From Acidobacteria bacterium RIFCSPLOWO2_12_FULL_65_11 (lineage in GTDB: Bacteria; Acidobacteriota; Vicinamibacteria; Vicinamibacterales; CAVVIG01), in the NCBI GenBank assembly GCA_001767495.1, contig MELA01000141.1, positions 933 through 64,932 on the forward strand: a stretch of DNA of 64,000 bases, written 5' to 3'. Shown piece after piece: positions 8,251 to 60,798 of the stretch. Every line of letters starts with the position of its first letter. The stretch's first letter is position 1. The notes under the pieces were generated by a model. That model was given only the letters and a program-made list of their open reading frames with translations, made no database searches and was not told the DNA's origin. The translations under genes were made by a program, and so were the position numbers.

Positions 8251-8311
8251 TGGTGTCCGCCTTCAGGCGGACCGTGGCTCGCGGGGGTCCGGCTGAAACC
8301 GGACACTACAG
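8251..8311. repeat. REP-like hairpin dimer (Q forward + P reverse)
   Basis: GTGTCCGCCTTCAGGCGGAC ... GTCCGGCTGAAACCGGACACTAC. The terminal CTA (8306-8308) is the kinase stop codon (TAG on the minus strand). Confidence 0.9.
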
Positions 8312-9772
8312 AGAAGTGCGAAGAGGCAGGCGCACGGTAATTGTGGTACCTCCGCCAACCGGGCAATCGACCGTGATCGTCCCTCCGTGCGCCTCGACGA
8401 ACTGCTTCGTCGTCGGCAGGCCGAGCCCGGTGCCTTTCGACTTGGTCGTGAAGAACGGCGTGAAAATTTTCTCCCGCACGTCGGGAGGAATCCCCGGACC
8501 GGAATCGACAATGACGATCTCGCAGCTGTTCTCAATCGAGGTCACAGATGTGCCGATCACACCCTTGCCGCGCATCGCCTGGGCGCTGTTGAGCAGCAGG
8601 TTCTCAAAGACGACGCCCAACAGACTGGCATCGGCCATGACGGGAGGGACAGCGCCCGAGATCTCCACGCGCAGATCCTTGAACGACGCGTCCTTCCGGA
8701 GCAGATCGGCGGTCGTCTCGAGCAGGGACACCACATCGAGTGGCGTCGGCTTGGGCTGAGGCGGCCGCGCGAACAGCAGCAGATCCCTCATCAGGTCGTT
8801 CAATCCATCGACGCGCCGGATGACTTCCTCCATCACCGCCTTATCCCGGCTGCCTGCTGGCAACCGGCCGGCGATCACTTGAACGGCGCCTCGCACGGCG
8901 GCGAGCGGATTCTTCACCTCGTGGGCGAGGACGGCCGCCATTTCGCCGAGCCTGGCGAGCCCCGCCTGCTCACGAAGCTGTTCTTCCAACTGCACCCGAG
9001 ACGTCAGGTCGTGGATGATCCCCGAAAACTTGCGCTCGCCGCCGACGGTCATCTCGCCGACCGACAGATGGATGGGGAAGGTCGTTCCGTCCTTGCGGCG
9101 GCCGAACACCGCGCGGCCGATGCCGATGATCTTTCGTACGCCCGTCGCCAGGTACCGCTCGATGTATCGGTCGTGTTCCTCGCGATATGGCGACGGCATC
9201 AGGATGTTCACGCGCTGGCCCAACACCTCCTCTTCCGTGTATCCGAACAATCGTTGAGCCGCCGGATTGAAGGCTTCGACCCGGCCGCGCGCATCGATCA
9301 GGACGATGCCATCGACGGCGGACTCGACGACAGCCCGCCAGCGGGCTTCGCTGTCGCGCAGTTGCTCCTCTAGCTGGACCCGAGTGGTGAGATCGTGAAT
9401 GATCCCCGTGAACTTGCGCTCGCCGCCGACCGACATCTCGCCGACGGAGAGATGGATGGGGAACGTGCGACCGTCCTTGCGACGGGCGATGACCTCCCGA
9501 CCGAGGCCGATGATCCTGGGCACGCCCGTGGTCAGGTATCGCTCGATGTACCCGTCGTGCTCGTCGTGATACGGCGCCGGCATCAGCATGCTGACGTTAC
9601 GGCCCATCACGTCGGCCGCGGCGTAACCGAACAAGCGCTCCGCGGCCGGATTGAAGGCTTCGATGCGACCGCGAGCATCGATGACGACAATGCCGTCGAC
9701 GGCGGATTCTACGATGGCCGCCAGAACGCGAGCCGCGTTCTCTCCCAGCTTGAGATTCGTGGGGTCTGACAT
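8306..9772 (-). CDS. cytoplasmic PAS-PAS sensor histidine kinase
   Basis: Two near-duplicate PAS modules (VESAVDGIV.IDARGR.EAFNPAA.RLFGY). HisKA H-box LAHEVKNPL. HATPase motifs DSGPGIP and GTGLGL. Confidence 0.92.
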   Translation of the reverse strand: MSDPTNLKLGENAARVLAAIVESAVDGIVVIDARGRIEAFNPAAERLFGYAAADVMGRNVSMLMPAPYHDEHDGYIERYLTTGVPRIIGLGREVIARRKDGRTFPIHLSVGEMSVGGERKFTGIIHDLTTRVQLEEQLRDSEARWRAVVESAVDGIVLIDARGRVEAFNPAAQRLFGYTEEEVLGQRVNILMPSPYREEHDRYIERYLATGVRKIIGIGRAVFGRRKDGTTFPIHLSVGEMTVGGERKFSGIIHDLTSRVQLEEQLREQAGLARLGEMAAVLAHEVKNPLAAVRGAVQVIAGRLPAGSRDKAVMEEVIRRVDGLNDLMRDLLLFARPPQPKPTPLDVVSLLETTADLLRKDASFKDLRVEISGAVPPVMADASLLGVVFENLLLNSAQAMRGKGVIGTSVTSIENSCEIVIVDSGPGIPPDVREKIFTPFFTTKSKGTGLGLPTTKQFVEAHGGTITVDCPVGGGTTITVRLPLRTSL

Positions 9773-9873
9773 CTCCGAGGAGGCGCCTCCGAGCGCTCGC
9801 CGACGAGCTTATCTCAGCTCGTAGCCCTGCGACGCGGGCTTTCGCGATTATTTCGGCCTGCCGACGGTCGCCG

Positions 9874-9889
9874 TGGCACGGAGTGTGCT
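9874..9889 (+). promoter_or_regulatory. candidate sigma-54 promoter (-24/-12)
   Basis: TGGCACGGAGTGTGCT versus consensus TGGCACG-N4-TTGCW. GG-N10-GC spacing is exact, with one mismatch (G for T at -14). Divergent from the kinase operon. Confidence 0.45.
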
Positions 9890-9901
9890 CTCCGCTCGGC
9901 C

Positions 9902-10749: not shown

Positions 10750-10750
10750 C

Positions 10751-11701: not shown

Positions 11702-11780
11702 ACTACTGCGTCACCCTCACGACCATAAGACATACGTGTACCGCAGTGCTGTCTCGTCGCTGGTCAGAACGCCTGGGGCG

Positions 11781-13876: not shown

Positions 13877-13929
13877 AATGTAGTGTCCGGCTTCAACACT
13901 AAATGTAGTGTCCGGCTTGAGCCGGACCT
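13877..13929 (+). repeat. REP-like unit P with partial tandem duplication
   Basis: AAATGTAGTGTCCGGCTTCA / ACACT / AAATGTAGTGTCCGGCTTGAGCCGGACC. Confidence 0.85.
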
Positions 13930-19502: not shown

Positions 19503-19658
19503 GCGCCGCGCTGTGGCGAGCGGCGTGCCAACGAGTGACGGCCGGAATCGCTGGACTTCCGGACGATCGGGTCCGCGAAGGTGGCAGTTTCTGCGTACGC
19601 GAACATGGTGGCGTCGGCAGATTCTCTGGCGACAACGCTGGAGCCGTCGTACGGGACA

Positions 19659-22013
19659 ATGATGAGGATGGCTTCAAAGGACCCTGTGTGTGGGATGAGC
19701 GTCAGGCCGGACAGTCCCCACCGGCTCGAGTACGCGGGCGATACCTATCTTTTCTGCTGCGCCGGGTGTCTGGCGAAATTCCGCGACAACCCGACACGGT
19801 ACTTGGAAACGGTTTCGCACCACGTGGGGGCCGGCTTCAGCCGGACCGAAGTCCGCCTGAAGGCGGACGCCACGATAGCTTCGAAACTCTCTGCCGGGAT
19901 GACCTACACATGCCCGATGCACCCCGAGATCGTCCGCAGCGCCCCCGGCCCATGTCCCCTCTGCGGGATGGCGCTCGAGCCCCGCACGGTGACAAGTGCA
20001 GCCGAGGAGCAGAATCCCGAGCTGCGGGACATGACGCGCCGCCTCTGGATCGCGACAGCCCTTACGGCACCGCTCCTGATCTCGGTGATGAGCGACATGC
20101 TGCCGGGAGCCGGGACGCTCTTTTCGATGTCCATGAGGACGCAGATGCTCCTCGACCTCGCTCTGGCCACACCGGTGTGCATCTGGGCCGCATGGCCCTT
20201 TTATGAACGTGCCGTGTCGTCGGTCGTCCACCGCAGCCTGAACATGTTCACGCTCATCGGGCTCGGCGTCAGCGTCGCGTACGTCTACAGCCTCGTCGCG
20301 ACCCTCTTTCCGGAGATCTTTCCGGATTCCTTCCGCGCGGAAGGCGAGGTTGCCGTCTACTTCGAGGCCGCCGCCGTCATCACGACGCTCATCCTCCTTG
20401 GCCAAGTGCTCGAGCTGCGCGCGAGAAGCCACACGAGCGCTGCGATCAGAGAGTTGCTAGGCCTGGCGCCGAAGACGGCGCGGCGGCTTCGCGAGGACGG
20501 ACTCGACGAGGACGTTCCGCTCGAGACGGTGCAGGTCGGCGACCGGTTGCGCGTGCGACCGGGCGAGAAGGTGCCGGTCGATGGCGTCGTCCTCGACGGA
20601 CACAGCCATGTGGACGAGTCGATGATCACCGGCGAGCCCATGCCCGTGGAGAAACAGTCGGGGGACCGCGTGGTCGGCGCGACGATGAACGGCACCGGCG
20701 GCCTGGTGATACGCGCGGAGAAGGTCGGGGCCGAGACGCTCCTGGCGCGCATCGTCGCCATGGTGGCCGAGGCACAGCGCAGCCGGGCACCGATTCAGAA
20801 GCTCGCGGACGTCGTCTCGGGCTACTTCGTGCCAATCGTCATCCTGACCGCCGTCGTCACGTTCGTCGTGTGGGGACTCGTCGGACCGGAGCCTCGAATG
20901 GCGCATGCGCTCATCAATGCCGTCGCGGTGCTCATCATCGCCTGCCCATGTGCGCTCGGACTGGCCACGCCGATGTCGATCATGGTGGCGACGGGCAAGG
21001 GCGCGACGATGGGTGTGCTCTTCAGGAACGCGGAGGCCATCGAGATCCTGCGCAAGGTGGACACGCTGGTGGTCGACAAGACGGGCACGCTCACCGAGGG
21101 CAAACCGAAGCTGGTGAGCGTCACGCCGGCCCCGGGCGTCAAAGAAGATGAACTACTTCGCCTGGCGGCCAGCCTCGAGCGAGGGAGCGAGCACCCACTC
21201 GCGGCCGCCATCGTCAGAGGCGCCGAGGCCAGAGGCCTCGAGCTGGCCGACGCCGAGCGATTCGAGTCGATCACTGGAAAGGGCGTGAAGGGACGCGTCG
21301 AGGGCCATGATGTGGCGCTCGGAAACAAGGCGTTGCTCGAAAGTCTCGGCATCGAGGCGCGACCGCTCGTGGAGCGCGCCGAAGAACTCCGGGCGGATGG
21401 GCAGACAGTCATGTTCGTCGCGATTGACCGCAGCGCGGCAGGCCTTCTGGGCGTGGCCGATCCCATCAAGGAGAGCACGCCCGACGCGATTGCGGCATTG
21501 CACAAAGACGGCGTCCGCCTGGTGATGCTGACGGGCGACAGCCAGACGACGGCCCAGGCGGTCGCCCGGAAGCTTGGCATAGACGAAGTGATGGCCGAGG
21601 TGCTGCCGGATCAGAAGGCCGACAAGGTCAAGCGCCTCCAAGCCGAGGGCCGGGTCGTCGCGATGGCGGGCGACGGCATCAACGATGCGCCGGCGCTCGC
21701 CCAGGCACACGTGGGCATTGCGATGGGCACCGGCACGGATGTCGCGATGGAAAGCGCGGGCGTGACGCTCGTGAAGGGCGACCTTCGTGGCATCGCACGG
21801 GCGCGCGGCCTCTCGCGACAGACGATGCGCAACATCAAGCAGAATCTGTTTTTCGCGTTCGTTTACAACACGGCGGGTGTGCCCATCGCCGCCGGTGTGC
21901 TCTATCCGGCGTTCGGCCTCCTTCTGAGCCCCATCATCGCTGCGGCCGCCATGAGCTTCAGCTCGTTGTCGGTGGTCGCCAACGCCCTCCGTCTTCGTCG
22001 AGCGGGCGTTTAG
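19659..22013 (+). CDS. copA: copper-translocating P1B-1 P-type ATPase with N-terminal TRASH/YHS and YTCPMHPE metal-binding modules
   Basis: [18 protein letters not shown] (TRASH), [21 protein letters not shown] motif ([13 protein letters not shown]), [17 protein letters not shown]. Start ATG 19659 is tentative. Confidence 0.92.
19829..19868 (+). repeat. REP-like P/Q hairpin dimer inside the copA reading frame
   Basis: GGCCGGCTTCAGCCGGACC GAA GTCCGCCTGAAGGCGGAC translated in frame as [14 protein letters not shown]. Confidence 0.85.
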
Positions 22014-22825: not shown

Positions 22826-23128
22826 ATGCGCCGATGGCTGTTGTTAGCCGTGCTCGCCTTGTTGATCGCCGATGCGGGTGGACTCACCGCCTTCGCGGAG
22901 ACAGAAGCGTGCGCCTTGACTTCAACAACCGATCGCGGCCCGGACGGAACCTGTCCGACGTTTTGCGTCCGTTGCGGTTGTTGCGCGACTCCCATCCTTC
23001 ACTCCGTTCTTGACGTCGTCGCCACGTTCATCCCACCCGTCGTCGCCCTGCCACAAGCGGCAACCACCGGGCTGCCGTCCGCTATGGGTTCTGAGATCCT
23101 TCACGTCCCCAAACTCCGTCTCGCGTAG
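22826..23128 (+). CDS. small secreted Cys-rich protein leading RND operon 1
   Basis: Signal peptide MRRWLLLAVLALLIADAGG. Six Cys in EACALTSTTDRGPDGTCPTFCVRCGCC. Tail TGLPSAMGSEILHVPKLRLA. Confidence 0.55.
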   Translation: MRRWLLLAVLALLIADAGGLTAFAETEACALTSTTDRGPDGTCPTFCVRCGCCATPILHSVLDVVATFIPPVVALPQAATTGLPSAMGSEILHVPKLRLA

Positions 23129-23130
23129 CT

Positions 23131-23230
23131 ACAGCGTTTTTCACAACGCCGTAGTACGTAGTGTCCGGCTTTAGCCGGACCAGCGGGCGGTCCGCCTGAA
23201 GGCGGACACTACAGCGTTGTGAAAAGCGCA
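23131..23230 (+). mobile_element. MITE-like element: REP P/Q hairpin pair between 19-nt terminal inverted repeats (copy A)
   Basis: Identical over all 100 nt to the reverse complement of 60686-60798, apart from a 13-nt duplication in that copy. Ends are GCGTTTTTCACAACGCCGT and ACAGCGTTGTGAAAAGCGC. Confidence 0.8.
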
Positions 23231-23280
23231 TTAGACACACACAGTTCGACCGTCTATCCGTTTTTTTCGCAAGGAGCAGT

Positions 23281-24504
23281 ATGTCCAGTCGCTGTGTATG
23301 GGCGGTGGGTGTGGCGGCGTTTGTCTGCGGTGGGACCGCTGCAAGCGGCCAGTCCACGCTGACCTATCAACAGGCTCTCACGATGGCGCGAGAACGCGCG
23401 CCGAGGGTCGCGATTGCCAGAGCGCGCATTGACGAAGCGCGAGGTCGAATTGTCGGCGCGCGGATGAGGTTTCGCGACAACCCGGTCCTCGATGTCTCTG
23501 CAGGCCCGCGGACACTGGAAAGCGAGACGGTGACCGACTTCGAGCTCGGTATCAATCAGATTGTCGAGCTCGGCAATCGTCGGACGGCTCGCATCGACGC
23601 GGCTGAAGCCTCGGTCGTGCGCGAAGCCGCGACATCGGACGCCACCATTCGCCAACTCATCCGTGATGTCGCGGTCAGCTTCGTCCGCGGGCAGCAGGCC
23701 CAGGCGCGGCTCGATGTCCTGCGTGCTGCGGAGTCGGTGGCGAAAGACGCCTTGGATGCAGCTGACCGCCGCTATCGGGCCGGCGACGTCGCCGTGCTTG
23801 ACGTCAACGTCGCCCGGGCCTCGGTGGCCCGCGCCACTGCACACGTGCGGGTCGCGGACGCAGACCGCGCAGCGGCGGTCGGTGAGCTGAAAGCACTGCT
23901 GGCGTGGACGGAGGGCGCGGATCCAGCGGTCGAAGGCGACCTGCGCGATCGCATTCGGGACGGACTCGCCGTGCAACTCCTGCCAGCCAACGAGCGGCCG
24001 GAAGTCAGGATGCTCCTGGCGGAAGCGGCGGAAGCGCAGGCTGACGTCAGGCTCGGACAAGGACTCAAGAAACCCGATCTGGGGTTTGGGCTGCGGTTCG
24101 AGCGTGAAGAAGGACATCGAGCTGCCGCCGCGGGTTTTTCAATCGGGCTTCCGCTCTTCAGCAAGGGCCAGGAGCAGATGGCGACCGGTCTGGCGCGGGC
24201 CAGCCGAGCGGAGCTGGAACGCGGCGTGGTCGTCACGGAGCTGGAGCTTCGAGCTCGGTCGGCACAGACGGTCTTTCAGATGCGTCTGGCCGCCGCCGAG
24301 CCACTCCAACGCGACGTCTTACCGGGTCTTGAGGAGAACGAGCGTCTGGCCCGACGCAGTTTTGAGGTAGGCGAACTGAGTCTGCCCGATCTACTCGTCA
24401 TTCGTCGTGAATTCGTCGACACGCGCCTGCAACTCGTGGATGCGCTCGCAGACGCCGCAATCGCGTCGATCGACCTGCAGGCCGCAGCGGGGGTACTCCG
24501 ATGA
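23281..24504 (+). CDS. TolC-family outer-membrane efflux protein (CzcC/CusC-like), operon 1
   Basis: AAGGAG RBS, signal peptide and two OEP repeats. ATGA overlap with the downstream adaptor. Confidence 0.85.
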   Translation: MSSRCVWAVGVAAFVCGGTAASGQSTLTYQQALTMARERAPRVAIARARIDEARGRIVGARMRFRDNPVLDVSAGPRTLESETVTDFELGINQIVELGNRRTARIDAAEASVVREAATSDATIRQLIRDVAVSFVRGQQAQARLDVLRAAESVAKDALDAADRRYRAGDVAVLDVNVARASVARATAHVRVADADRAAAVGELKALLAWTEGADPAVEGDLRDRIRDGLAVQLLPANERPEVRMLLAEAAEAQADVRLGQGLKKPDLGFGLRFEREEGHRAAAAGFSIGLPLFSKGQEQMATGLARASRAELERGVVVTELELRARSAQTVFQMRLAAAEPLQRDVLPGLEENERLARRSFEVGELSLPDLLVIRREFVDTRLQLVDALADAAIASIDLQAAAGVLR

Positions 24505-25694: not shown

Positions 25695-25699
25695 CGACC

Positions 25700-31896: not shown

Positions 31897-31918
31897 ATAT
31901 CGCCCGTCTGTTCGGCCC

Positions 31919-32044
31919 AGAGGTCCGGCTGAAGCCGGACACTACAACGTTATAGAGGTCCGGCTGAAGCCGGACACTACAACGTTATAGATGCAGTGTC
32001 CGGCTTCAGCCGGACCGGATGTAGTGTCCGGCTTTAGCCGGACC
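31919..32044. repeat. array of four REP-like P units (2 direct 35-nt repeats, then 2 inverted copies) between adaptor and pump genes
   Basis: AGAGGTCCGGCTGAAGCCGGACACTACAACGTTAT x2 (31919-31953, 31954-31988). Then GTGTCCGGCTTCAGCCGGACC (31996-32016) and GTAGTGTCCGGCTTTAGCCGGACC (32021-32044). Confidence 0.92.
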
Positions 32045-32048
32045 GTGA

Positions 32049-34828: not shown

Positions 34829-34880
34829 AACACCTCGGAATGAACGTGAACGACGACAGACGACGGGTGAGCCCGTCAGA

Positions 34881-35267
34881 TCAGATCAGGCGGGAAGGCG
34901 GCGGAGGAGCGCGTGACGATACGTGTCGGCGCGGGGGGCCGTGCGGCGGCGGCGCGTCGATGCTGGATATCGCGATACAGCCGCGCGGCTCAGGAAGGGT
35001 GTCGACCTCCACCGCGGCGATCGCCTGGACGAGGGAGAATTCATGCGTCGCCGGTTCGATGCCCACGTCGTCGAACCAGACGACCCGCCCTTCGCCGTGA
35101 GAGATTTCCGCCCCATCGCGATCGTGCGCCTCGAAATGCCGGTGGGCGACGGACCGCGGGTGGCCGGCATCGGCCTCGTGGAGATGTTCTGGCGGAGCGG
35201 CAGCGGACGAGAAGACGAGGGACGAAGCGAGTGCGAGAGCGAGCCGCGCGCGCCCCGGTGACGGCAT
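34881..35267 (-). CDS. small secreted His-rich protein leading RND operon 2
   Basis: Signal-like ARLALALASSLVFSSAAA. Seven His in PPEHLHEADAGHPRSVAHRHFEAHDRDGAEISH. Pro-rich tail HGPPRRHVSSRAPPPPSRLI. Competing antisense ORFs exist. Confidence 0.5.
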   Translation of the reverse strand: MPSPGRARLALALASSLVFSSAAAPPEHLHEADAGHPRSVAHRHFEAHDRDGAEISHGEGRVVWFDDVGIEPATHEFSLVQAIAAVEVDTLPEPRGCIAISSIDAPPPHGPPRRHVSSRAPPPPSRLI

Positions 35268-35277: not shown

Positions 35278-38429
<3,152 letters not shown>

Positions 38430-38456
38430 GGTTCGTTTCTCGCGGGGACGAGCACG

Positions 38457-41323: not shown

Positions 41324-41414
41324 GACACGCTGCCTTTCCTTGAGATAGCCGCCACACGCCGCACTGCGGCGCGACGCCGATCGATTCGGACGCGTGGTGA
41401 CGTAGCGTAGTGAC

Positions 41415-41442
41415 GTACGTAGTGTCCGGCTTCAGCCGGACC
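41415..41442 (+). repeat. REP-like unit P (forward)
   Basis: GTACGTAGTGTCCGGCTTCAGCCGGACC, lying between the small leader ORF and cusC. Confidence 0.9.
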
Positions 41443-41454: not shown

Positions 41455-41862
41455 CTAGATCAGAAAGACGGAGAGGACGATGTGCCGGCGTGTTGGAGAG
41501 AAGGGAGGTCCGGTGTCAGTCGAAGAGACCAGCCGCACGCGAGCCGGTGCAACAGGAATCGCCGCCGCCACGACGGCCGAAAATGGAACAGCCGATGGGA
41601 GGGCAATCCGCTCCTGCTTCGCCGCGACAAAACCATGTGATTGTTGAAGCTGCCCGTCCTCGCAGCATGGCGCCGCTTTGGCTCCTGCCGGGCATGACGA
41701 GTCGTGGTGGCCACTGGCGCAGCAGGCCATCTGGGCGTCGGCCCCGTCGAGAGCCGCCACGCAATCTGCCAGCGATCCCCCAGCGAGGACGATCGCCAAC
41801 ACGATCGGCACACCGCGAACGCGCAAGCGGGTCACGAAGGACATTGGGGGTGATTGTCCCAT
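41455..41862 (-). CDS. small secreted Cys-rich protein leading RND operon 3
   Basis: Signal/anchor VPIVLAIVLAGGSLA. Six Cys plus HH in DCVAALDGADAQMACCASGHHDSSCPAGAKAAPCC. Tail TGPPFSPTRRHIVLSVFLI. Start may be the second ATG (41844). Confidence 0.55.
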   Translation of the reverse strand: MGQSPPMSFVTRLRVRGVPIVLAIVLAGGSLADCVAALDGADAQMACCASGHHDSSCPAGAKAAPCCEDGQLQQSHGFVAAKQERIALPSAVPFSAVVAAAIPVAPARVRLVSSTDTGPPFSPTRRHIVLSVFLI

Positions 41863-41896: not shown

Positions 41897-41964
41897 GGTC
41901 CGCCTCAAGGCGGACGCTACATCAAGAGCCGGTCCGCCTGAAGGCGGACACTACACCAAGAGCG
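41897..41964. repeat. two tandem 34-nt REP-like Q units
   Basis: GGTCCGCCTCAAGGCGGACGCTACATCAAGAGCC / GGTCCGCCTGAAGGCGGACACTACACCAAGAGCG. The M23 peptidase stop codon (41922-41924) lies inside copy 1. Confidence 0.9.
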
Positions 41965-43163
41965 GCCATCGCACGATCGCGAACGGCGGCAAACGCCGCC
42001 ATCTGATCGGCAGGAACCGGAGCGGCCGGTGGTGTGTCGCGCACGGCCGTCAGCGGGTTGACGAACACGCCATTCTTCTTCACGCGGTAGTCGAGGTGCG
42101 GGCCGGTCGCGAGCCCGGTGGCGCCCACGCGGCCGATGAGGTCGCCCTGCGCGACGCGCGCGCCGGCACGCACGTCGATCGAGGACAGGTGCAGGTACTC
42201 GGTCTCGAAGCCGTTCCCGTGTCGCAGGTGGACCATCCGTCCCGACGCGCCGTTAGCGCCCGCCTGCACCACCACGCCGTCGGCCACGGCCACGACCGGC
42301 GCGCCCACCGGCGCCCGGTAATCGACACCGAGGTGCGCGCGCCGCTCGTGAAGGACCGGGTGCAGGCGGCTGCGGGAAAAACCCGACGAGACGGTCGGCT
42401 GAAACTTCAGCGGTGAGCGCAGCAGAAAGCGCCGCACCGACACGCCGCGCTCGTCGAAGTAGGCCGGCGAGCCACCCTCGGGGACAAAGCGCACGGCACG
42501 CAAGCGGCGACCGTCGTTGTTGAACTCGGCGGCCTGCAGGGGCCCGTAGCCCGCAAAGACATGCTGCTCGCGGAACTCGGTGTCGACCAGCACCCCGAAG
42601 GTGTCGCCGGGCTGAAGCTCGGTATTGAAGTCGATCTGACCGCTGAGGACGTCGGCAAGCGCGATCGCCAGCTCGGCTCTCCCCCCGCCGGCGCCTATCG
42701 CGCCGAAGAGCGAAGGGACGCTCGGCGTAATGATCCCCTGCACGACCTCGACGCTGATGGTCTTCGGGATCGGCAGCACTTCGGCCAGAAGCGCCGCGTC
42801 GCCGGTCGGGCGGCTCACCCGCAGGAAACGATCCTGGTCGATCTCGTACTCGAAACTCTTCAATCGACCGCCGGCCGCCCACCGCTCGATGCGGTAGGGT
42901 CGATCGGCGTGGACCTTCCGCACGTCGAACACCGCCTGCGCCCGCGCGAGGAGATCCGCGATTTCCTCGTCTGCCACGCGGCCGGCGTGCAGGAGCCCGC
43001 CGAGCGTCGCCCCCGCCGCGACGCGCGCCGAGACCGCGCGCATATCGGCCCTGAGATCGATGTCCTCGAGGTCACCGCGGGTCGCGCGCATACCGCGGTC
43101 GCCGGCCGGTCCGACGCAACCGGTTGCGGCCATACACATGACGATCAGGATTGAGTACCGCAT
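41922..43163 (-). CDS. M23-family metallopeptidase (possible lipoprotein)
   Basis: HLGVDYRAPVGAPV..GRMVHLRHGNGFETEYLHLSS HxxxD/HxH motifs. MRYSILIVMCMAATGC signal. The last 14 codons are REP-encoded. Confidence 0.88.
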   Translation of the reverse strand: MRYSILIVMCMAATGCVGPAGDRGMRATRGDLEDIDLRADMRAVSARVAAGATLGGLLHAGRVADEEIADLLARAQAVFDVRKVHADRPYRIERWAAGGRLKSFEYEIDQDRFLRVSRPTGDAALLAEVLPIPKTISVEVVQGIITPSVPSLFGAIGAGGGRAELAIALADVLSGQIDFNTELQPGDTFGVLVDTEFREQHVFAGYGPLQAAEFNNDGRRLRAVRFVPEGGSPAYFDERGVSVRRFLLRSPLKFQPTVSSGFSRSRLHPVLHERRAHLGVDYRAPVGAPVVAVADGVVVQAGANGASGRMVHLRHGNGFETEYLHLSSIDVRAGARVAQGDLIGRVGATGLATGPHLDYRVKKNGVFVNPLTAVRDTPPAAPVPADQMAAFAAVRDRAMAALGVVSAFRRTGS

Positions 43164-43215
43164 ACTCCCCAACCTATCGGACGCAGGCTCGCTCAAGCGT
43201 AGGCTCCCGGTGATT

Positions 43216-49557: not shown

Positions 49558-49585
49558 GGTCCGGCTGAAGCCGGACACTACGTAC
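49558..49585 (-). repeat. REP-like unit P (reverse)
   Basis: GGTCCGGCTGAAGCCGGACACTACGTAC fills the 33-nt gap between two minus-strand genes. Confidence 0.9.
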
Positions 49586-49586
49586 T

Positions 49587-51035
49587 TTACTTCAGCTCGA
49601 CCTGTTCGAGATGTTTGGCAATGTGCACGGGCCAGCCTTTGGCCTGGATTCGAGCGGCGAGCGCCTCGAGCGCCACCGCCTCGCCATGCACGAGATGGGT
49701 CATCGACGGCGCCCGGGAAAAGCCTGACAGCCAGCGCACGATCTCGCCCGCATCGGCGTGCGCCGACATCGAGTCCAGCCGCTCGATCCGTGCCGCCACC
49801 GGCACCATCCGCCCGTGCATCTTGACCTGCGTGGCTCCGTCGCACAGATGGCGACCGCGCGTGCCGGCGGCCTGATAGCCGACAAACATGACGGTGGTTC
49901 GAGCGTCGGGCAGCGCCGCCTCCAGGTGATGGAGCACGCGACCGCCGGTGGCCATCCCGCTCGCGGCGATGACAATGGATGGCGTATGTGATGCCGTAAG
50001 CGCTTTGGACTGCTCGACGGAGGCAACGGTCGTCATGCGGCGCGTGCAAAACGCATCGAGATCTCGAGCGGCAGCTCGCGTTGCCATAGTCCGGCGAGAG
50101 CCGGACACGACATCGGCAGGATCGGAGAGAGCGGGATGGCGGTCTGGGGCGTCGAGCTCGGACGAGCGGCGCCGGTAGAACTCCAGAGCCGCGGCGGCCA
50201 TCGGGCTGTCGACGTACACCGGCAGGGTGGGAATACTCCCGGCCTCCTCGAGCCGCTTGAGCCAGTACAGCACCTCTGCGACGCGCCCTATGGCGAACGA
50301 CGGGATGATGAGCTTGCCGCCACGGGCGAACGTCTCACCGACAATGTCCGCCAGTCGCCTTCCTTCGTCATCCGGCAGATGCAAACGATCGCCGTAGGTC
50401 GATTCAAGCAGCAGCACGTCCGCCTCGTCGACCGGCGACGGATCGGGTAGGACCGGCCGGCCGTAGCGTCCGAGGTCGCCGCCGAAGAGAATCGTCCGGC
50501 CGCCGACCTTGACGCGTGCGTACGCCGAGCCGAGCAAATGGCCGGCGTTGATGAACTCGACCTCGACGCCAGCCGCCACGGGAACGGGCCGGTTGTAGCC
50601 GACCGGCTGCAACTGGGCGAGCGCGCGCGCGGCGTCGGCCGACGTGTAGAGCGGCTCGGCCGGATGGTGCTTCGAGTAGCCGTGCTTGTTGGACTGTCGA
50701 GCGTCCTCTTCTTGAAGGCGCGCGGAATCGGGCAGCACGAGCGTGCACAGATCGCGCGTGCCGGGCGTGCAGAAGATGCGGCCGCGAAAGCCTTGCGCGA
50801 CCAGGCGCGGCAGCTGACCGCAGTGATCGAGATGCGCGTGCGTGAGGATCACCGCACCGATGCTCGCAGGATCGAGGGGAAACGGGGCCCAGTTGCGGAG
50901 CCGCAGCTCCTTGAGCCCCTGAAACATGCCGCAGTCGACGAGGATCCGGCGGTCGCCGAGATCGAGCAGGTGTTTCGATCCGGTGACGGTACCGGCGGCT
51001 CCGAGAAACGTCAGCGACGCCATCGAACTACGCAT
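49587..51035 (-). CDS. MBL-fold metallo-hydrolase with beta-CASP / RNA-specificity domain
   Basis: LTHAHLDHCG motif, beta-CASP segment and C-terminal HLVHGE. An alternative ATG at 51023 is possible. Confidence 0.85.
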   Translation of the reverse strand: MRSSMASLTFLGAAGTVTGSKHLLDLGDRRILVDCGMFQGLKELRLRNWAPFPLDPASIGAVILTHAHLDHCGQLPRLVAQGFRGRIFCTPGTRDLCTLVLPDSARLQEEDARQSNKHGYSKHHPAEPLYTSADAARALAQLQPVGYNRPVPVAAGVEVEFINAGHLLGSAYARVKVGGRTILFGGDLGRYGRPVLPDPSPVDEADVLLLESTYGDRLHLPDDEGRRLADIVGETFARGGKLIIPSFAIGRVAEVLYWLKRLEEAGSIPTLPVYVDSPMAAAALEFYRRRSSELDAPDRHPALSDPADVVSGSRRTMATRAAARDLDAFCTRRMTTVASVEQSKALTASHTPSIVIAASGMATGGRVLHHLEAALPDARTTVMFVGYQAAGTRGRHLCDGATQVKMHGRMVPVAARIERLDSMSAHADAGEIVRWLSGFSRAPSMTHLVHGEAVALEALAARIQAKGWPVHIAKHLEQVELK

Positions 51036-51892
51036 TGTATAGTGACAGCGTGACTGATCTCTTGACGGCGCTTCGTTCTGGTACGTCTGTCTTCGGGGCG
51101 GAACTGCGGCCGCCGCGGGCCGAGCTCGCGATGGCCGAAGGGATGGACGCCTGGATCGACACGTATCACGCCGTGCGGCGTCTCACGCACCAGCGCCGGT
51201 TCGTGTTCCTGACCGACAACGCCGTCGGCGCCGAGGAGGAAAACAACCTGCGACACCTGGTGACCAATCTCGGCGACGACGCCCCTCGGGAGCGCGTCGT
51301 GCCGTTTCTGACGACGAAGCATTCGGTGGAGTACTGCCTGTCGTACGCCGAGCGCGCGCACCAGAGCGGCTTTTCAGCCCTGGTCGTCCTCGGCGGCGAT
51401 CAGACGGTGGGCCCGCCCCGATGCGTCGAGCACGCCTGGCAACTCCGGCAGATGCTGCGCGAGCACGATCAGACGATTACACTCGGTGGCTGGGCGAACC
51501 CGCACGCCGATCCCGAACGTCAGGTGGATTATCTCGGGTCACCGAACGTCCATGCCGAGTTCTTCCTGACGCAGATCGTCAGCCACCACCACACCGGGGC
51601 GGTCGCGCGGTTTGTCGAGACGGCCGAGCGGCGCGGGCTGACGCTCCCCGGCGTGTTCGGCGTGTTCTTCTACCGCAGCGCGAACCGCCGCACGCTCGAC
51701 GCGCTCCAGAGTTTTCTGCCGGTACCGGTTGACGAGCTGTCGCGGGAGTTCGCGGCCGGCGCGACGGCCGAAGAGATCTGCGCCCGAACGATTCGCGCGC
51801 TGAAGGAGGCCGGCGCGCGGCATTTCTACATCAGCAATCTACCCATCGGCCGGGCCCAGAACGTGCTGGCGACGATCCTGGACAGAATCTAA
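51035..51892 (+). CDS. methylenetetrahydrofolate reductase-like (MTHFR family) protein
   Basis: AELRPP, LVVLGGD, FFLTQIV and HFYISNLP segments recalled from the MTHFR fold. The start (TTG 51035 or GTG 51050) is uncertain. Confidence 0.6.
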   Translation: MYSDSVTDLLTALRSGTSVFGAELRPPRAELAMAEGMDAWIDTYHAVRRLTHQRRFVFLTDNAVGAEEENNLRHLVTNLGDDAPRERVVPFLTTKHSVEYCLSYAERAHQSGFSALVVLGGDQTVGPPRCVEHAWQLRQMLREHDQTITLGGWANPHADPERQVDYLGSPNVHAEFFLTQIVSHHHTGAVARFVETAERRGLTLPGVFGVFFYRSANRRTLDALQSFLPVPVDELSREFAAGATAEEICARTIRALKEAGARHFYISNLPIGRAQNVLATILDRI

Positions 51893-51899: not shown

Positions 51900-51963
51900 T
51901 TCACAACCGTAGTGTCCGGCTTCAGCCGGACCTGGAAGTCCGCCTAAAGGCGGACACTACAGG
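51900..51963. repeat. REP-like P/Q dimer with a partial left MITE arm (TTCACAACCGTAG)
   Basis: GTAGTGTCCGGCTTCAGCCGGACC TGGAA GTCCGCCTAAAGGCGGACACTAC. Confidence 0.9.
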
Positions 51964-52728: not shown

Positions 52729-52752
52729 CACGAAAACACGAAAACACGAAAA
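52729..52752. repeat. tandem octamer CACGAAAA x3 in a divergent promoter region
   Basis: Read directly, 16 nt upstream of the proposed SDR start. Confidence 0.85.
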
Positions 52753-52904
52753 GGAATCTGCAATATAATCAGCGCCTCGGCGGTGGAGTCCGCCATTAAC
52801 CGTCACGCTCCTTCGTGTGGCCAATGACTCCTGCGGGCGGCACGTCCCGTGGGAATCCCCTCCCGGCCGCATCAGCCTGCAAAAATGCACAGCGAAGGAG
52901 GGCC

Positions 52905-54074
52905 ATGCCTGATTTGGCGACAGCGACGATCCTCGCCGCACTCATCCTGGCTGCCTCGATTGTCTCGGTGGAATTCGGCATTTCTGTCGCGGTCATCGAG
53001 ATCGGCCTGGGCGTGGTTGGGGCGAGTCTGTTCGGCCTCCGGCCGACGCCGTGGATTGATTTTATCGGCAGCTTCGCGGGCATCGTCCTGACCTTCCTAG
53101 CCGGCGCGGAAGTCGATCGGACGCTGCTTCGGCGCGAGTGGAAACCCGCGCTTCTGATTGGAGGCTTGTCCTTCCTGTTGCCGTTCGTGGGCGTCGCGTT
53201 GTTCGCACGACTGGTCGCCGGCTGGAAGATGGATCAGGCATTGATTGCGGGCATCGCGTTGTCGACGACCTCGCTTGCCGTTGTCTATGCCGTCCTCATC
53301 GAAACGAGACTCGCCGCGACCGAACTGGGCAAGATCCTCATGGCCGCGACGTTTGTCACGGATTTCGGGACGGCGCTTGCGCTTTCCGTGCTGTTCGTGC
53401 AACCGACACCCTCTCTCGCCCTCTTCATCGTCGTCTCGATCGCGATCGTTGGCGTCATGGTCGCCTTCGAGCGGCCCTTCTTCGCGCGGTACGGCGCACG
53501 TGTCATCGAACCGGAAATCAAGGGCGCGTTTCTCGCCCTGTTTGTCCTCATGTGGACGGCGGACCTGGCCAAGTCGCATGCGGTGCTCCCCGCCTTCCTC
53601 CTCGGCCTGGCGGTCGCCGATGTATTCAAACGCCATCCCGAGGAGCAGCGCCGTTTCCGGATCGTGTCGTTCGCCTTCCTGACACCGATGTTCTTCCTAA
53701 AGGGCGGCCTCAACGTCGACGTGAGGCAACTGGCTGCGGGCGGATGGCTGCTGCTGGGGTTTCTCGTTGTGAAGATCGCGACCAAGTTCATCGGCGTGCT
53801 GCCGGCGGCCCGGCGCTACGTCCAGCCGTACGCGGTGTTCACGACACTGCTGATGAGTACAGGGCTCACCTTCGGCACCATTTCATCCCTCTACGGTCTC
53901 AATGCGGGGATCATCGACCGGCAGCAGTTCACGATTCTCATCGGCGCGGTCATCGGTTCGGCCATCGTCCCGACGATCATCGCCCAGCGATGGTTTGCAC
54001 CGCCCGTGCACGTCCTGAGCGCCGACGAGATGGCGGACGCCGAAGACGAAGAATTCGAGCCGCGGTCGCGTTAG
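52905..54074 (+). CDS. cation:proton antiporter (Na+/H+ exchanger family)
   Basis: GAAGGAGG RBS before ATG 52905. About 12 TM segments. GIVLTFLAGAEVD motif. Confidence 0.85.
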   Translation: MPDLATATILAALILAASIVSVEFGISVAVIEIGLGVVGASLFGLRPTPWIDFIGSFAGIVLTFLAGAEVDRTLLRREWKPALLIGGLSFLLPFVGVALFARLVAGWKMDQALIAGIALSTTSLAVVYAVLIETRLAATELGKILMAATFVTDFGTALALSVLFVQPTPSLALFIVVSIAIVGVMVAFERPFFARYGARVIEPEIKGAFLALFVLMWTADLAKSHAVLPAFLLGLAVADVFKRHPEEQRRFRIVSFAFLTPMFFLKGGLNVDVRQLAAGGWLLLGFLVVKIATKFIGVLPAARRYVQPYAVFTTLLMSTGLTFGTISSLYGLNAGIIDRQQFTILIGAVIGSAIVPTIIAQRWFAPPVHVLSADEMADAEDEEFEPRSR

Positions 54075-54076: not shown

Positions 54077-54100
54077 ATGGCAGGATGGCAGGATTGCAGG
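54077..54100. repeat. tandem octamers ATGGCAGG ATGGCAGG ATTGCAGG at a convergent gene junction
   Basis: Reverse complement of the CCTGCCAT array at 62063-62094. Confidence 0.85.
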
Positions 54101-56472: not shown

Positions 56473-57693
56473 GTGGCTCCGCTCAAGGCTTCCGCCGACG
56501 CGATTGCTGTCGCCGCCCGCGTCAGTCGCTTCACGTATGCCATCCGCAACATCGTCGCGGAGGCGAAGAAGGTCGAGGCGGCGGGCCTGCGCGTGCGGTA
56601 TCTCAATATCGGAGACCCGGTGGCCTTCGGGTTCAAGACGCCACCCCATCTCATCGCCGCCGTCGAGCGCGCCTTGCGGGACGGGCACAACGGGTACGGT
56701 CCCTCGCCCGGTATTGAGCCCGCGCGCGAAGCGGTGGCCGCCGAGTACACCGCGCGCGGGTTCCCGGCATCGGCAGACCGCGTGTTCCTGACGGCCGGGA
56801 CCTCCGAAGGCATCGATCTCGCGCTCGGCGCACTGGTCGACGAGGGCAGCGAGGTGCTGGTCCCGATGCCGACCTATCCTCTCTATACAGCCGTCATCGC
56901 CCGGTTCGGCGCCCGCGCTCTGTACTACCGCACCGACCCAGAGAGAGGCTGGGCGCCGGATCTCGATCACCTCCGGAGCCTCGTGACACCGTCCACGCGG
57001 GTGCTCGTCGTCATCGATCCGAACAATCCGACCGGCGCGTCGTACTCGGTGGCGACGCGACGCGCGCTGCTTGAGGTCGCCGATCGCTACGGGCTCGCGA
57101 TTCTCGCCGATGAGGTCTACGGCGACCTCGGATTCGACGGCCAGGTGGCCCCGCTCGGCAGCCTCGAGCCGGATGCACCGATCGTCTCGCTTTCCAGTCT
57201 GTCGAAGGCGTATCTCGCGCCGGGCTGGCGCACCGGCTGGATGACCGTCGGCCGCTCGCCTCGGCTCAATGACGTTGTGAAGGCGGTCGCCAAGCTGGCC
57301 GACGGCCGCCTTTGCAGCACCGTGCCGATGCAGTACGCGGTGGCTGCCGCGCTGACCGGCGATCGGTCACATCAAGTGTTATTCCGCGCGGCACTGCGGG
57401 AACGGGCCGCGTTGACCGTCGAGCGGTTGAACGCCATGCCGGGCGTGACGTGCGTGGCTCCCACTGCGGCCTTCTACGTGATGCCGCGGGTGGCCCTGCC
57501 GCCCGGGCGCACCGACCAGGACTACGTCCACGCGCTGCTTGGCGCGACGGGCGTGCTCACCGTCTACGGCTCGGGATTTGGCACCGCTCCCGAGGACGGA
57601 TACCTCCGCATCGTGTACCTCGCCCCTCCCGAGGAGCTCGGCGAGATCTACGACCTCATGGCCGAATTCACCGCGGAGTATCTGAGGGGTTAG
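56473..57693 (+). CDS. PLP-dependent aminotransferase, class I (alanine/aspartate aminotransferase-like)
   Basis: YAIRNIV, LNIGDP, DPNNPTG and SLSKAY (PLP Lys). GTG start. Confidence 0.88.
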   Translation: MAPLKASADAIAVAARVSRFTYAIRNIVAEAKKVEAAGLRVRYLNIGDPVAFGFKTPPHLIAAVERALRDGHNGYGPSPGIEPAREAVAAEYTARGFPASADRVFLTAGTSEGIDLALGALVDEGSEVLVPMPTYPLYTAVIARFGARALYYRTDPERGWAPDLDHLRSLVTPSTRVLVVIDPNNPTGASYSVATRRALLEVADRYGLAILADEVYGDLGFDGQVAPLGSLEPDAPIVSLSSLSKAYLAPGWRTGWMTVGRSPRLNDVVKAVAKLADGRLCSTVPMQYAVAAALTGDRSHQVLFRAALRERAALTVERLNAMPGVTCVAPTAAFYVMPRVALPPGRTDQDYVHALLGATGVLTVYGSGFGTAPEDGYLRIVYLAPPEELGEIYDLMAEFTAEYLRG

Positions 57694-57730
57694 TCGGCAG
57701 TCGGCAGTCGGCAGTCAGCGGTCGGCAGTC
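57692..57730 (+). repeat. tandem heptamer AGTCGGC x5.5
   Basis: AGTCGGC AGTCGGC AGTCGGC AGTCAGC GGTCGGC AGTC fills the whole 39-nt spacer between two genes. Confidence 0.9.
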
Positions 57731-57732
57731 AA

Positions 57733-58914: not shown

Positions 58915-58939
58915 GGGTTCTAGCGGTTATGATCACCCT

Positions 58940-60685
58940 GTGAGGCTTCGCACCCCTTGGCTGGTCCTAGGGCTTTGGTCCCTGGTGTCGTGGGGCGCCA
59001 GCGCACAGCTCCGCGCTCCAGCGGCCAGCGTCGCACCTATTGTCGAAGGCGAGGCCGCCGCCGGCGGCACGGTTCGCGCCGCGCTCCTCGTCACTCTCCC
59101 AGAAGGCTTTCACGTCCAATCGAACAAGCCCCGCGATCCGTTGCTCGTCGCGACCGAGCTGACCTTCGATCCGACAGAAGGTGTGTCGGTCGAGGAGATC
59201 GTCTTTCCAACTCCGATCGAGCTGAAACTGAATATCGCCGGGTTCGACGAGCCGCTGGCCGTATTCGAGCGTGATTTCTCGATTGGCGTTCGCTTCGCCA
59301 TCGCCTCGACGGTCGCAGGCGGCGAGATTGTCGTCCCGGCCCATCTGCGCTACCAGGCGTGCAACGACACGGTGTGCTTTGCCCCGAAGAACGTGGACGT
59401 GCAGTGGACCGTGCGCGTCGTGCCCGCAGGGACGGCTATCGCGCGTCAGCCCGGCGACGTGCTCGATCGCATCGCCTTCGGCCGTGGCGAAGCACCTGCG
59501 CAAGCGGCCATATCCATCGCCCCGCGCATCTCGTCTCTGTCTGGACCTGATGGTGCGGCGGCCGAGCTCGCCTCGCTCGACAATTTCACCGTCCTCGGAA
59601 CCACGGGCGGCTACCTCGGCAGCGACGACTTTCTGACGTTCATCCACAACGCCGAGAATGGCGTGAGAGAAGCGGGCCTCTTTGAAGGCCGCGGCCCTCT
59701 CGCCATCCTGCTCATCGTCTTCCTCGGCGGCCTGGCGCTCAACCTGACTCCGTGCGTGCTCCCGATGATCCCCATCAACCTGGCGATCATCGGCGCCGGC
59801 ACGCGGGCCGGGTCGCGCGGCCGCGGGTTCCTGCTCGGCGGCGCCTACGGCGCCGCGATGGCATTGGTATACGGCGTCCTCGGTCTGGTGGTGATCCTGA
59901 CGGCCGGTACGTTTGGCACGATCAACGCCTCGCCCTGGTTCAATCTGGGCATCGCCATGCTCTTCGTCGCCCTCGCGCTCGCGATGTTCGACGTCATCAC
60001 GATCGACTTCTCGCGATTCTCGAGTGGTATCGGCGCCGGGGCCACCGGAGGCGGATCGTTCCTGCTCGCCTTCAGCATGGGCGCGGTGGCCGCGCTCCTG
60101 GCGGGCGCATGCGTCGCGCCGGTGGTGATTCAGGTCGTGCTGTTCTCGAGCAACCTCTACGCGGCCGGCACGACCATCGCGCTCGCGCTGCCCTTCTTTC
60201 TCGGAGTCGGCATGGCCGTGCCGTGGCCCATCGCGGGCGCCGGTCTGGCGGCGCTGCCCAAGCCGGGCGCCTGGATGGTACAGGTCAAGCAGGTCTTCGG
60301 CGTCTTCATCCTGGCCACGGCCGTCTATTACGGGTACGTCGCCTACGGCCTGTTCTCGGACCGGTGGGTTGACGCTTCCGAGGTCAACGCGAGCGTCCAG
60401 GAGAAGCTGTTGGCCGGATGGCACCCTTCGCTCGCCGAGGGCCTCGCGACGGCCACGCGCGAGAGCAAACCGGTGCTCATTGACATGTGGGCGACCTGGT
60501 GCAAGAACTGCCTCACCATGGACAAGACGACGCTGAAGGATCCGGCGGTGAGGGCGGCACTCGATGGTTATGTGAAGATCAAGTTTCAGGCCGAGGATCC
60601 GGATCGCCAGCCCGCCAGGGCCGTCATGCAACGCTTCGACGCGATCGGCTTGCCGGCTTACGTCATTCTGAAACCCGAAAACTAG
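58940..60685 (+). CDS. dsbD: thiol:disulfide interchange protein DsbD-like
   Basis: N-terminal DsbD-alpha-like domain, TM core with CVLPMIP, C-terminal thioredoxin WATWCKNC. GTG 58940 start with signal peptide. Confidence 0.85.
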   Translation: MRLRTPWLVLGLWSLVSWGASAQLRAPAASVAPIVEGEAAAGGTVRAALLVTLPEGFHVQSNKPRDPLLVATELTFDPTEGVSVEEIVFPTPIELKLNIAGFDEPLAVFERDFSIGVRFAIASTVAGGEIVVPAHLRYQACNDTVCFAPKNVDVQWTVRVVPAGTAIARQPGDVLDRIAFGRGEAPAQAAISIAPRISSLSGPDGAAAELASLDNFTVLGTTGGYLGSDDFLTFIHNAENGVREAGLFEGRGPLAILLIVFLGGLALNLTPCVLPMIPINLAIIGAGTRAGSRGRGFLLGGAYGAAMALVYGVLGLVVILTAGTFGTINASPWFNLGIAMLFVALALAMFDVITIDFSRFSSGIGAGATGGGSFLLAFSMGAVAALLAGACVAPVVIQVVLFSSNLYAAGTTIALALPFFLGVGMAVPWPIAGAGLAALPKPGAWMVQVKQVFGVFILATAVYYGYVAYGLFSDRWVDASEVNASVQEKLLAGWHPSLAEGLATATRESKPVLIDMWATWCKNCLTMDKTTLKDPAVRAALDGYVKIKFQAEDPDRQPARAVMQRFDAIGLPAYVILKPEN

Positions 60686-60798
60686 TGCGCTTTTCACAAC
60701 GCTGTAGTGTCCGCCTTCAGGCGGACCGCCCGCTGGTCCGGCTAAAGCCGGACACTACGTACTACGGCTACGTACTACGGCGTTGTGAAAAACGCTGT
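60686..60798 (-). mobile_element. MITE-like element copy B (inverted relative to 23131-23230, with a 13-nt tandem duplication)
   Basis: The reverse complement equals copy A nucleotide for nucleotide, except for a duplicated GCCGTAGTACGTA. Confidence 0.85.

Follow-up and report, generated by a model that had tools for sequence, protein, structure and literature searches.

The 64,000-nucleotide stretch analysed here (the window), taken from contig MELA01000141.1 of Acidobacteria bacterium RIFCSPLOWO2_12_FULL_65_11, carries at ten loci a small hairpin that an earlier reading of the sequence, called here the original prediction, had likened to repetitive extragenic palindromic (REP) sequences. 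Our results suggest, with a probability of roughly 85%, that the ten loci belong to a GTAG-type REP family of the Vicinamibacterales, including inverted REP pairs (REPINs), that has a cognate REP-associated tyrosine transposase (RAYT). The element is of a known kind, since GTAG REP/REPIN-RAYT systems are found in enterobacteria, pseudomonads and others (PMC3733652, PMC6006769, PMC3116915); what is new is the Vicinamibacterales family. The identity of the RAYT, and the arrangement in which REPs flank its gene (the REPtron), are established in relatives at the level of sequence comparison, and a RAYT is presumably present and active in the window's own genome as well. The earlier description and interpretation of the hairpin family were essentially right, with the qualifications given below.

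Each unit consists of the foot GTAG, one further base, a G+C-rich stem of 7 bp that encloses a loop of 4 nt, either TTCA or TTTA, and a final C, and is a short stem-loop palindrome of the kind (20-40 bp) by which REPs are recognised. The two forms of the unit, P and Q, are distinguished by exactly two bases; the claim that these pair with each other in the stem (G:C in one form, C:G in the other) is borne out. Our catalogue of both strands recovered 19 complete units of 23 nt (12 of type P, G..C, and 7 of type Q, C..G) at all ten loci where the family had been said to recur, together with one truncated P unit (13880-13902) and one diverged candidate within a gene (50089-50111); neither G/G nor C/C occurs at the variable positions of any unit in the window. 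Exact P occurs five times and exact Q three times, where shuffled sequences lead one to expect none, and the 18-nt hairpin core with up to three mismatches gives 41 strand-hits against 0.45 expected, in a window whose G+C content is 65.8%. For the hairpin of a single unit the predicted folding energy is -8.0 kcal/mol in DNA and -13.2 kcal/mol in RNA (z-scores -4 to -5). P and Q are isoenergetic, and the G/G one-step intermediate would fold more weakly (-6.2 kcal/mol as DNA, -8.8 as RNA). The GTAG foot is 90-99% conserved per position in 224 units, its variants being mainly GTGG and the foot as a whole GT[AG]G; in the extended consensus, cgtaC-GTAGTG...GGAC-C, both the unpaired foot and the loop are highly conserved. 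Copies are many, dispersed and mostly extragenic (19-21 units at 10 loci in 64 kb), nine of the ten loci being intergenic or at gene ends and one intragenic and in frame. Rfam contains no match to the units, its sole match in the window being a fluoride riboswitch. The recurrent pseudo-peptides that had been attributed to read-through are explained in just this way: GTA GTG TCC GGC TTC AGC CGG ACC reads VVSGFSRT, and the reverse strand gives RLKPDTT and PAEAGHY. The units of the window, with gene calls based on near-identical contigs, open reading frames (ORFs) filtered by G+C content at third codon positions (GC3), and Pfam, are the following.

8250..8272, plus strand: Q unit with tag GTGG, left half of a P/Q pair with outward GTAG ends; between PAS histidine-kinase and response-regulator genes.
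8287..8309, minus strand: P unit with the closing C of its stem changed to T, right half of the 8250/8287 pair.
13880..13902, plus strand: truncated P unit with the 5' tag, 5' arm and loop only.
13905..13927, plus strand: P unit with loop TTGA, in a divergent intergenic region adjoining a P-type ATPase gene.
19824..19873: degenerate P(+)/Q(-) pair (units at 19824 and 19851) with GTGG tags, inside the metal P-type ATPase ORF 19581..22013 (plus strand).
23158..23180, plus strand: P unit with loop TTTA, left half of a P/Q pair.
23190..23212, minus strand: Q unit, right half of that P/Q pair.
31923..31945, minus strand: P unit, first of a four-unit cluster that fills a 152-bp spacer inside a resistance-nodulation-division (RND) efflux operon.
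31958..31980, minus strand: P unit, 35-bp tandem partner of the unit at 31923..31945.
31993..32015, plus strand: P unit with tag GCAG.
32021..32043, plus strand: P unit with loop TTTA.
41419..41441, plus strand: single P unit; a tandem repeat (41392-41424) of a 13-nt sequence containing GTAG comes before it.
41898..41920, minus strand: Q unit with tag GTAGC and loop TTGA, in a direct Q-Q tandem.
41932..41954, minus strand: Q unit, second of the direct tandem.
49559..49581, minus strand: single P unit, filling the 33-bp spacer from a beta-CASP/metallo-beta-lactamase (MBL) RNase gene to an M49 peptidase gene.
50089..50111, minus strand: candidate diverged unit with a GTCG tag, a perfect P stem and loop TCTC, inside the beta-CASP gene; the evidence for it is weak.
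51909..51931, plus strand: left-hand P unit of a P/Q pair, located between convergent methylenetetrahydrofolate reductase (MTHFR)-like and short-chain dehydrogenase/reductase (SDR) genes.
51938..51960, minus strand: Q unit with loop TTTA, right half of that P/Q pair.
60704..60726, plus strand: Q unit, half of a P/Q pair.
60736..60758, minus strand: P unit with loop TTTA, half of that P/Q pair.

The list corrects details of the earlier one: there are four P units (- - + +) at 31923-32043, the two Q units at 41898/41932 form a direct tandem, and 13877-13929 holds one full and one half unit.

Neither of the two findings that the original prediction had named as refuting it was made. The family is not confined to the window. 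A scan of species-representative genomes with the exact pattern GTAGTGTCCGNCTTNAGNCGGAC found at least 112 loci in about 65 species-level assemblies (about 800 kb), and among the matches listed the hosts are nearly all Vicinamibacterales, Vicinamibacteria or Acidobacteriota (about 65 species-level metagenome-assembled genomes, MAGs); metagenome contigs carry the units too. Nor do the two variable positions change independently of each other, the other outcome that had been envisaged: the 213 units in these loci divide into 148 with G..C, 60 with C..G and five others, so that 208 are of one or the other paired type and none is G/G or C/C (a looser catalogue of the listed loci contains one G/G in 211 units). 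Since P and Q represent a single compensated event copied many times, the difference between them is by itself weak proof of covariation. A wider test was made on units flanking RAYT genes that were picked by their GTRG head and TTNA loop only, 102 distinct sequences in all. Their stem cells are paired in 92.5% of cases, compared with 13-41% when the partner column is slid, and double changes on both sides occur at six of the seven stem pairs, in 47 cells, a result that none of 500 shuffles equalled. Further fully compensated stems are GTCCACC, GTCTGGC, GTCCGAC, GTCCAGC, GCTCAGC and GCGCGGC. The stem is thus kept by compensatory change, as REP stems are, and the conclusion that pairing rather than sequence maintains it is supported. 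The earlier statement that the hairpin and not the sequence is conserved holds as far as these compensated changes go; the sequence is also very strongly conserved, however, with identical 23-mers across many species.

REP-bearing loci also turned up in bins labelled Bifidobacterium breve, Acidimicrobiia, Gemmatimonadaceae and Gemmatimonadales (L019/L057/L062/L101 of CALQBJ02, L058/L069 of VFYY01, L008 and L024). Their G+C content is 63-70%, that of the B. breve-labelled ones 67-70%, and they are probably mis-binned acidobacterial contigs, so that the REP could be used as a taxon tag. Around the units in the 112 listed loci the only recurring ORF families are common ones (transporters, kinases, efflux pumps) and no transposase family recurs. 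One locus with 11 units in 8 kb (L071) was considered as a REPtron and rejected, being a higher-order tandem array at 3090-3770 with a period of about 198 bp and several P and Q units per period; it lies between response-regulator and histidine-kinase genes and reads through as a spurious ORF of 212 aa.

As the original prediction had stated, the window itself holds no RAYT-type gene: a regular-expression search and tblastn with the E. coli RayT and with a Vicinamibacterales RAYT were all negative. It had proposed a search for a RAYT flanked by these units, and such genes do exist in related genomes and metagenome contigs, although not in the window. A protein search with the E. coli RayT did not recover the acidobacterial enzyme, its best 120 matches being Enterobacteriaceae throughout. 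Metagenome contigs were scanned for the codons of WQ-x19-Y[IV]xxNP with a REP core 91-151 nt further on, a spacing taken from E. coli TnpAREP, whose sequence was confirmed against PDB entry 4ER8. The scan returned at least 120 contigs, mostly from soil, and every listed contig encodes an ORF of 160-175 aa with the motifs YFLTFCT, PDHVH, AYCFMPDHVHLL, RAKQxSGF, LWQRYGxE..LR, RYILENPVRAGLV and ARYILENPVRAGLV. The NCBIfam model NF047646, 'REP-associated tyrosine transposase', is matched at 108.5 and 98.4 bits (cutoff 80), the Pfam Y1_Tnp cutoff is exceeded, and E. coli TnpAREP (4ER8) is the best match in the PDB. With one acidobacterial RAYT as query, a protein search gave at least 2,835 clusters at E<=1e-10, those with names being called 'transposase [Acidobacteria bacterium]' or, by JGI, 'REP element-mobilizing transposase RayT'. 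By its motifs the enzyme is intermediate between subclasses 2.5 and 2.7 of the Quentin scheme.

The RAYT genes are embedded in the same hairpins. Units lie within 250 bp upstream of the RAYT in 67 of the 69 loci with enough upstream sequence, and they are oriented in opposite ways on the two sides, 146 plus to 20 minus upstream and 185 minus to 21 plus downstream. The arrays have a median of two units and reach six upstream and nine downstream within 250 bp. Seven RAYT loci were retrieved by protein identity alone, and all seven are flanked by GTAG hairpins, with P/Q cores at five, GTCCACC at one, and GCTCAGC plus GCGCGGC at one. In one of the REPtrons (L233) the RAYT is preceded by Q and P and followed by P, Q, P and P. 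In two MAGs, JACPTI01 and JABFSA01, one contig carries the RAYT and a separate contig of the same genome carries dispersed units; the hairpins that flank the RAYT of JABFSA01 have the stems GCTCAGC and GCGCGGC and not those of P or Q. The idea of a separate RAYT for P and for Q was rejected as a general rule: L233 and many metagenome loci are single REPtrons with units of both types, and RAYT subclades correlate only loosely with the type of flank. In most RAYT loci the transposase gene terminates inside its own substrate hairpin: the ORF ends in ..S-G-stop in 50 of 82 loci (L113-L232, L233, L240, L241, L244), and that stop, TGA or TAA, is formed by the first three loop bases of the first downstream REP hairpin. 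A C-terminal -SG is present in 95 of 120 protein homologues. The neighbours of the RAYT are housekeeping genes, in at least four conserved contexts (NadR-gltX, HpcH/shikimate dehydrogenase, DHH and GDH).

A second regularity concerns which units are joined. The window contains five head-to-head P/Q pairs with their GTAG ends outward, as had been described, although the pair at 19824-19873 is degenerate, with GTGG tags and one stem mismatch, and lies inside an ORF; other genomes supply a further 20 inverted pairs, most of them with spacers of 3-14 nt, the layout of a REPIN. Over the window and the 112 listed genome loci taken together, the composition of neighbouring units depends on their spacing and orientation as follows.

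Inverted pairs with cores at most 14 nt apart: 23 heterotypic, 1 homotypic (binomial p=4e-8 against 42% expected).
Inverted pairs further apart: 10 heterotypic, 10 homotypic (Fisher p=9e-4 against close pairs).
Direct tandems: 3 heterotypic, 19 homotypic (binomial p=0.004, fewer heterotypic than the 42% expected).

Heterotypy thus goes with close inverted spacing, since distant inverted pairs divide 10:10 and tandems are homotypic; this is what one would expect if the strength of the palindrome matters. The alternation of two inverted unit types that characterises bacterial interspersed mosaic elements (BIMEs) is seen in the 23 of 24 close inverted pairs that are P+Q, and the defined linkers of BIMEs, which are further marked by binding of IHF, gyrase and Pol I, are absent, since the spacers differ in both length and sequence. 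The long hairpin that a natural P/Q pair could form has a predicted energy of -21.5 kcal/mol and contains two 1x1 mismatches, while P/P and Q/Q would form a perfect 24-bp stem (-31.2 and -32.4). Pairing P with Q thus costs the long palindrome about 10 kcal/mol and leaves each small hairpin intact, so that every substrate hairpin stays perfect while the long palindrome is broken. Perfect long palindromes have probably been lost or were never fixed, and avoidance of palindromes may be the reason for heterotypy. The same palindrome-breaking idea has been raised for other REP families, in which heterotypic inverted pairs had already been described (PMC3733652).

Heterotypy need not reflect selection. 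All close pairs might descend from one ancestral P-spacer-Q master REPIN, with no selection against palindromes, and we regard this as possible, although we lean against it. REPINs are believed to be copied as complete pairs (PMC3116915), the two composite elements of the window (described next) have one and the same spacer, and some spacers are alike across species, for example TTTC.. and CTCAC... The spacers of P/Q pairs differ within one genome, however, measuring 4, 6, 9 and 14 nt in the window, and the even division of distant inverted pairs, the homotypic tandems and the energy gap also speak against common descent. As to whether the pair is the replicating entity, the two identical composite copies speak for it, whereas variable spacers, singletons and tandem arrays speak against a single master.

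Two of the P/Q pairs are part of a larger composite element:

23128..23232, plus strand: composite element of about 105 bp, in which an outer inverted repeat of 17 bp, AGCGTTTTTCACAACGC, is followed by CGTAGTAC and this by the P/Q pair; upstream of an operon for outer-membrane efflux protein, membrane fusion protein and RND pump (OEP-MFP-RND).
60684..60800, minus strand: second copy, about 118 bp long, which agrees with the first in spacer and outer repeats and has an additional duplication of 13 bp; it begins directly at the TAG stop of a DsbD gene.

The copies are 37 kb apart and in opposite orientation, and their fold is predicted at -38.5 kcal/mol. The pair at 51909-51960, with the flank TTATTCACAACC, may be a decayed third copy. 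Tandem repeats of 13 nt that contain GTAG abut the GTAG end of a unit at two places, GCGTAGTGACGTA x2.6 (41392-41424) and CTACGTACTACGG x2.1 (60755-60781); they may have arisen by slippage, or may be footprints of repeated cutting and rejoining.

Unit copy number changes between strains. Contigs 99.7-99.98% identical to the window occur in the Rifle aquifer data sets, GCA_001767165.1, with contig MEKS01000058.1, being 99.97% identical, and a strain about 99.9% identical (L235) lacks one 35-bp P-unit repeat of the four-unit cluster at 31923-32043. A separate length difference among these strains affects a GH77 (4-alpha-glucanotransferase) gene at 43216-44799 on the minus strand of the window, which in comparison with L235, L236 and L237 is called at lengths of 527, 550 or 573 aa among near-identical strains, in steps of 23 aa (69 bp); L234 has offsetting indels there and no gene is called.

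The best explanation for the family is that the units are DNA substrates of the cognate RAYT, an HUH/Y1 enzyme which, by analogy with E. coli TnpAREP (4ER8), would bind the folded hairpin and the GTAG foot on single-stranded DNA, cut it and rejoin it. Such cutting and rejoining would spread single units and inverted pairs into intergenic spaces, and the same activity would create tandem arrays and occasionally in-frame insertions; P and Q are the two common stems, set apart by one flip of G:C to C:G. Several observations weigh against this reading. No RAYT turned up in the window, in the 112 listed genome loci or in some 21 kb of contigs from near-identical strains. The metagenome scan required one downstream REP by design, so that only the upstream arrays and the loci selected by protein are independent evidence for the REPtron; the RAYT occupies several distinct conserved neighbourhoods and need not be single-copy; the pair counts may include orthologous sites in different species and are then not fully independent; and the P/Q spacers, variable in length and sequence even within the window, fit poorly with one REPIN master.

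The first of these points would be expected if the units were relics, fossils of a REP-RAYT system whose transposase was lost or inactivated and which are kept by inheritance, as in Neisseria gonorrhoeae. Several units are indeed degenerate, with GTGG or GCAG tags, a truncated copy and a stem mismatch. Yet 8 of the 19 units match the consensus exactly, a unit is gained or lost between strains about 99.9% identical, two composite copies are identical, and related populations from soil and groundwater, among them those of the same Rifle metagenomes, are rich in RAYTs. The absence of a RAYT from the window says little, because 64 kb is a small part of the genome (about 1% if 6 Mb or so is assumed). 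We therefore consider a relic family improbable. The position of most copies just past stop codons or between co-directional genes, and the stability of the hairpin as RNA (-13.2 kcal/mol), would also suit host regulatory hairpins, either terminators or stabilisers of mRNA 3' ends, spread by ordinary duplication with no link to a transposase. An intrinsic terminator, however, has a U-tract after its hairpin, and the 3' flank of the units is not T-rich, with the terminator pattern in one of seven units of a 13-kb stretch. Conservation of an unpaired foot, the occurrence of units in both orientations relative to genes, the arrays that bracket the RAYT in fixed inverted orientation, and a pair placed in frame within a gene all go against such an origin, which we think very unlikely. 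Transcribed units might serve as protectors of RNA 3' ends, and such a role could well exist alongside mobility, yet it explains neither the origin nor the spread of the units. Least probable of all, and hardly to be entertained, is that the mobile entity is the 105-bp or so element with 17-bp terminal inverted repeats, a miniature inverted-repeat transposable element (MITE) of a DDE transposon in which the hairpins are cargo. The two composite copies with their outer inverted repeats and strong fold are what suggests it, but the outer repeat is present at only these two window loci and at none of 252 others, the eight other loci of the window carry units without it, and no target-site duplication is evident at either copy.

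Several known systems resemble the family. The REP-BIMEs of E. coli and other enterobacteria and their RayT (TnpAREP, YafM; 4ER8) share with the present family a 5' GTAG foot followed by a hairpin and high-copy, extragenic placement; they also share inverted pairs in which two unit types (Y and Z there) alternate, a REPtron with units of both types, and an HUH/Y1 enzyme with conserved WQ, E/R and YxxxNP motifs (PMC6006769). In contrast to the long, bulged stem of the E. coli REP, the present hairpin is perfect and short, at 7 bp with a 4-nt loop, and a single base separates its stem from GTAG; its two forms differ by one flipped base pair rather than by loop or bulge length as Y and Z do, and its spacers are short and variable where BIMEs have defined linkers. 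The host is an acidobacterium, and its RAYTs match E. coli TnpAREP weakly (E=4e-8 over about 125 residues). Closer in form are the REPs of Pseudomonas fluorescens and Stenotrophomonas, served by Group 3 (subclass 2.5) RAYTs, which are likewise short, with GTAG 1-2 nt from the stem, and which form inverted pairs (REPINs), clusters and tandem arrays and flank their own RAYT (PMC3116915, PMC6006769). The pairs described here differ in being heterotypic and in having variable spacers, and the enzyme, compared by motifs only, has DHVH and YILENP where subclass 2.5 has DH[LF]H and YI[VI]ANP. Inverted dimers of different stems are known from GTAG-24 of Pseudomonas aeruginosa and other heterodimeric GTAG/CGTC REPs, for which Di Nocera et al. 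(2013) reported a preference for heterodimers and suggested protection from palindrome-processing enzymes (PMC3733652). Ours is another sequence family from another phylum, and the preference is here quantified against spacing and orientation. The Rickettsia palindromic elements (RPEs) and the intragenic REPs of Opitutus terrae likewise sit in frame in protein linkers (PMC3733652), whereas in the present family most copies are extragenic and the window has one clear in-frame case. In the surveys consulted, the RAYT-like genes listed for Acidobacteria are all atypical and have other repeats at their flanks (PMC3733652, PMC6006769), and we found no publication that names both Vicinamibacter and repetitive extragenic palindromic sequences.

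Because REPIN-RAYT systems have so far been studied almost solely in Gammaproteobacteria and Neisseria, a Vicinamibacterales system would widen the host range and offer many independent natural replicates for asking why inverted pairs are heterotypic. The family accounts for the recurrent spurious peptides SGFSRT, RLKPDTT and PAEAGHY and probably for contig breaks in acidobacterial MAGs, and as a sequence tag it exposes mis-binned contigs. A bolder proposal, which we hold to be doubtful, is that of a long-lived and widespread REPIN-RAYT partnership in the Vicinamibacterales, and thus beyond the Proteobacteria, with obligate P+Q close inverted pairs and, in most orthologues, the RAYT stop codon in the loop of its own first downstream hairpin. 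If it were true, obligate heterotypy would show directly that bacterial genomes eliminate perfect palindromes with short spacers and yet keep the transposase substrate, and the stop in the loop could couple translation, transcript stability and enzyme binding in a self-limiting circuit.

The genes around individual loci of the window show how closely the units are fitted into them. The GTAG of the P unit at 8287..8309 (minus strand) provides the TAG stop of a histidine-kinase ORF (8306..9772, minus strand), and the M23 peptidase ORF 41922..43196 (minus strand) ends inside the Q unit at 41932..41954, its last residues being ..VVSAFRRTGS*. Spacers between co-directional genes that contain units include those from histidine kinase to response regulator and from beta-CASP RNase to M49 peptidase, as well as spacers inside three RND efflux operons. 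The one locus that qualifies the earlier, extragenic description is 19824-19873, where the pair is part of an insertion of 18 aa that keeps the reading frame of an 810-aa metal P-type ATPase ORF and stands between its YHS and HMBD domains. An ATPase homologue of 69% identity (L040) lacks exactly these 18 residues, for which reason we regard the locus as an in-frame REP insertion. The candidate at 50089..50111 falls in a stretch that cannot be aligned with the T. thermophilus homologue of the beta-CASP gene. A 135-aa ORF at 41455..41862, bracketed by units, was considered as a possible RAYT and rejected; it encodes a small Cys-rich protein of secreted type. For the protein encoded at 51035-51892 no exact product is on record.

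The 64-kb window also contains three paralogous OEP-MFP-RND efflux operons (23281-28771, the 31896-35267 region, and 36552-41323) and two metal P-type ATPases, and REP units fill several internal spacers of these regions. Within the histidine kinase, a 384-bp repeat (x1.9, 79% matches) at 8990-9714 corresponds to two PAS domains and is an ordinary domain duplication. The fluoride riboswitch (Rfam RF01734, 36.6 bits against a gathering score of 34) occupies 52770-52840 on the plus strand. It either lies a short way upstream of a gene of the Na+/H+ exchanger family (52815..54074) or, if the longest ORF is taken, overlaps the start of that gene, and it is preceded by three copies of CACGAAAA at 52729-52752. 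Short tandem repeats occur elsewhere as well: one 8-mer forms arrays on opposite strands at two intergenic spots, ATGGCAGG x3 (54077-54100) and CTGCCATC x3.5 (62064-62091), heptamer arrays of AAGTCTC/AGACTTG are found at 1803-1869 and 7656-7684, and AGTCGGC is repeated 5.6 times at 57692-57730.

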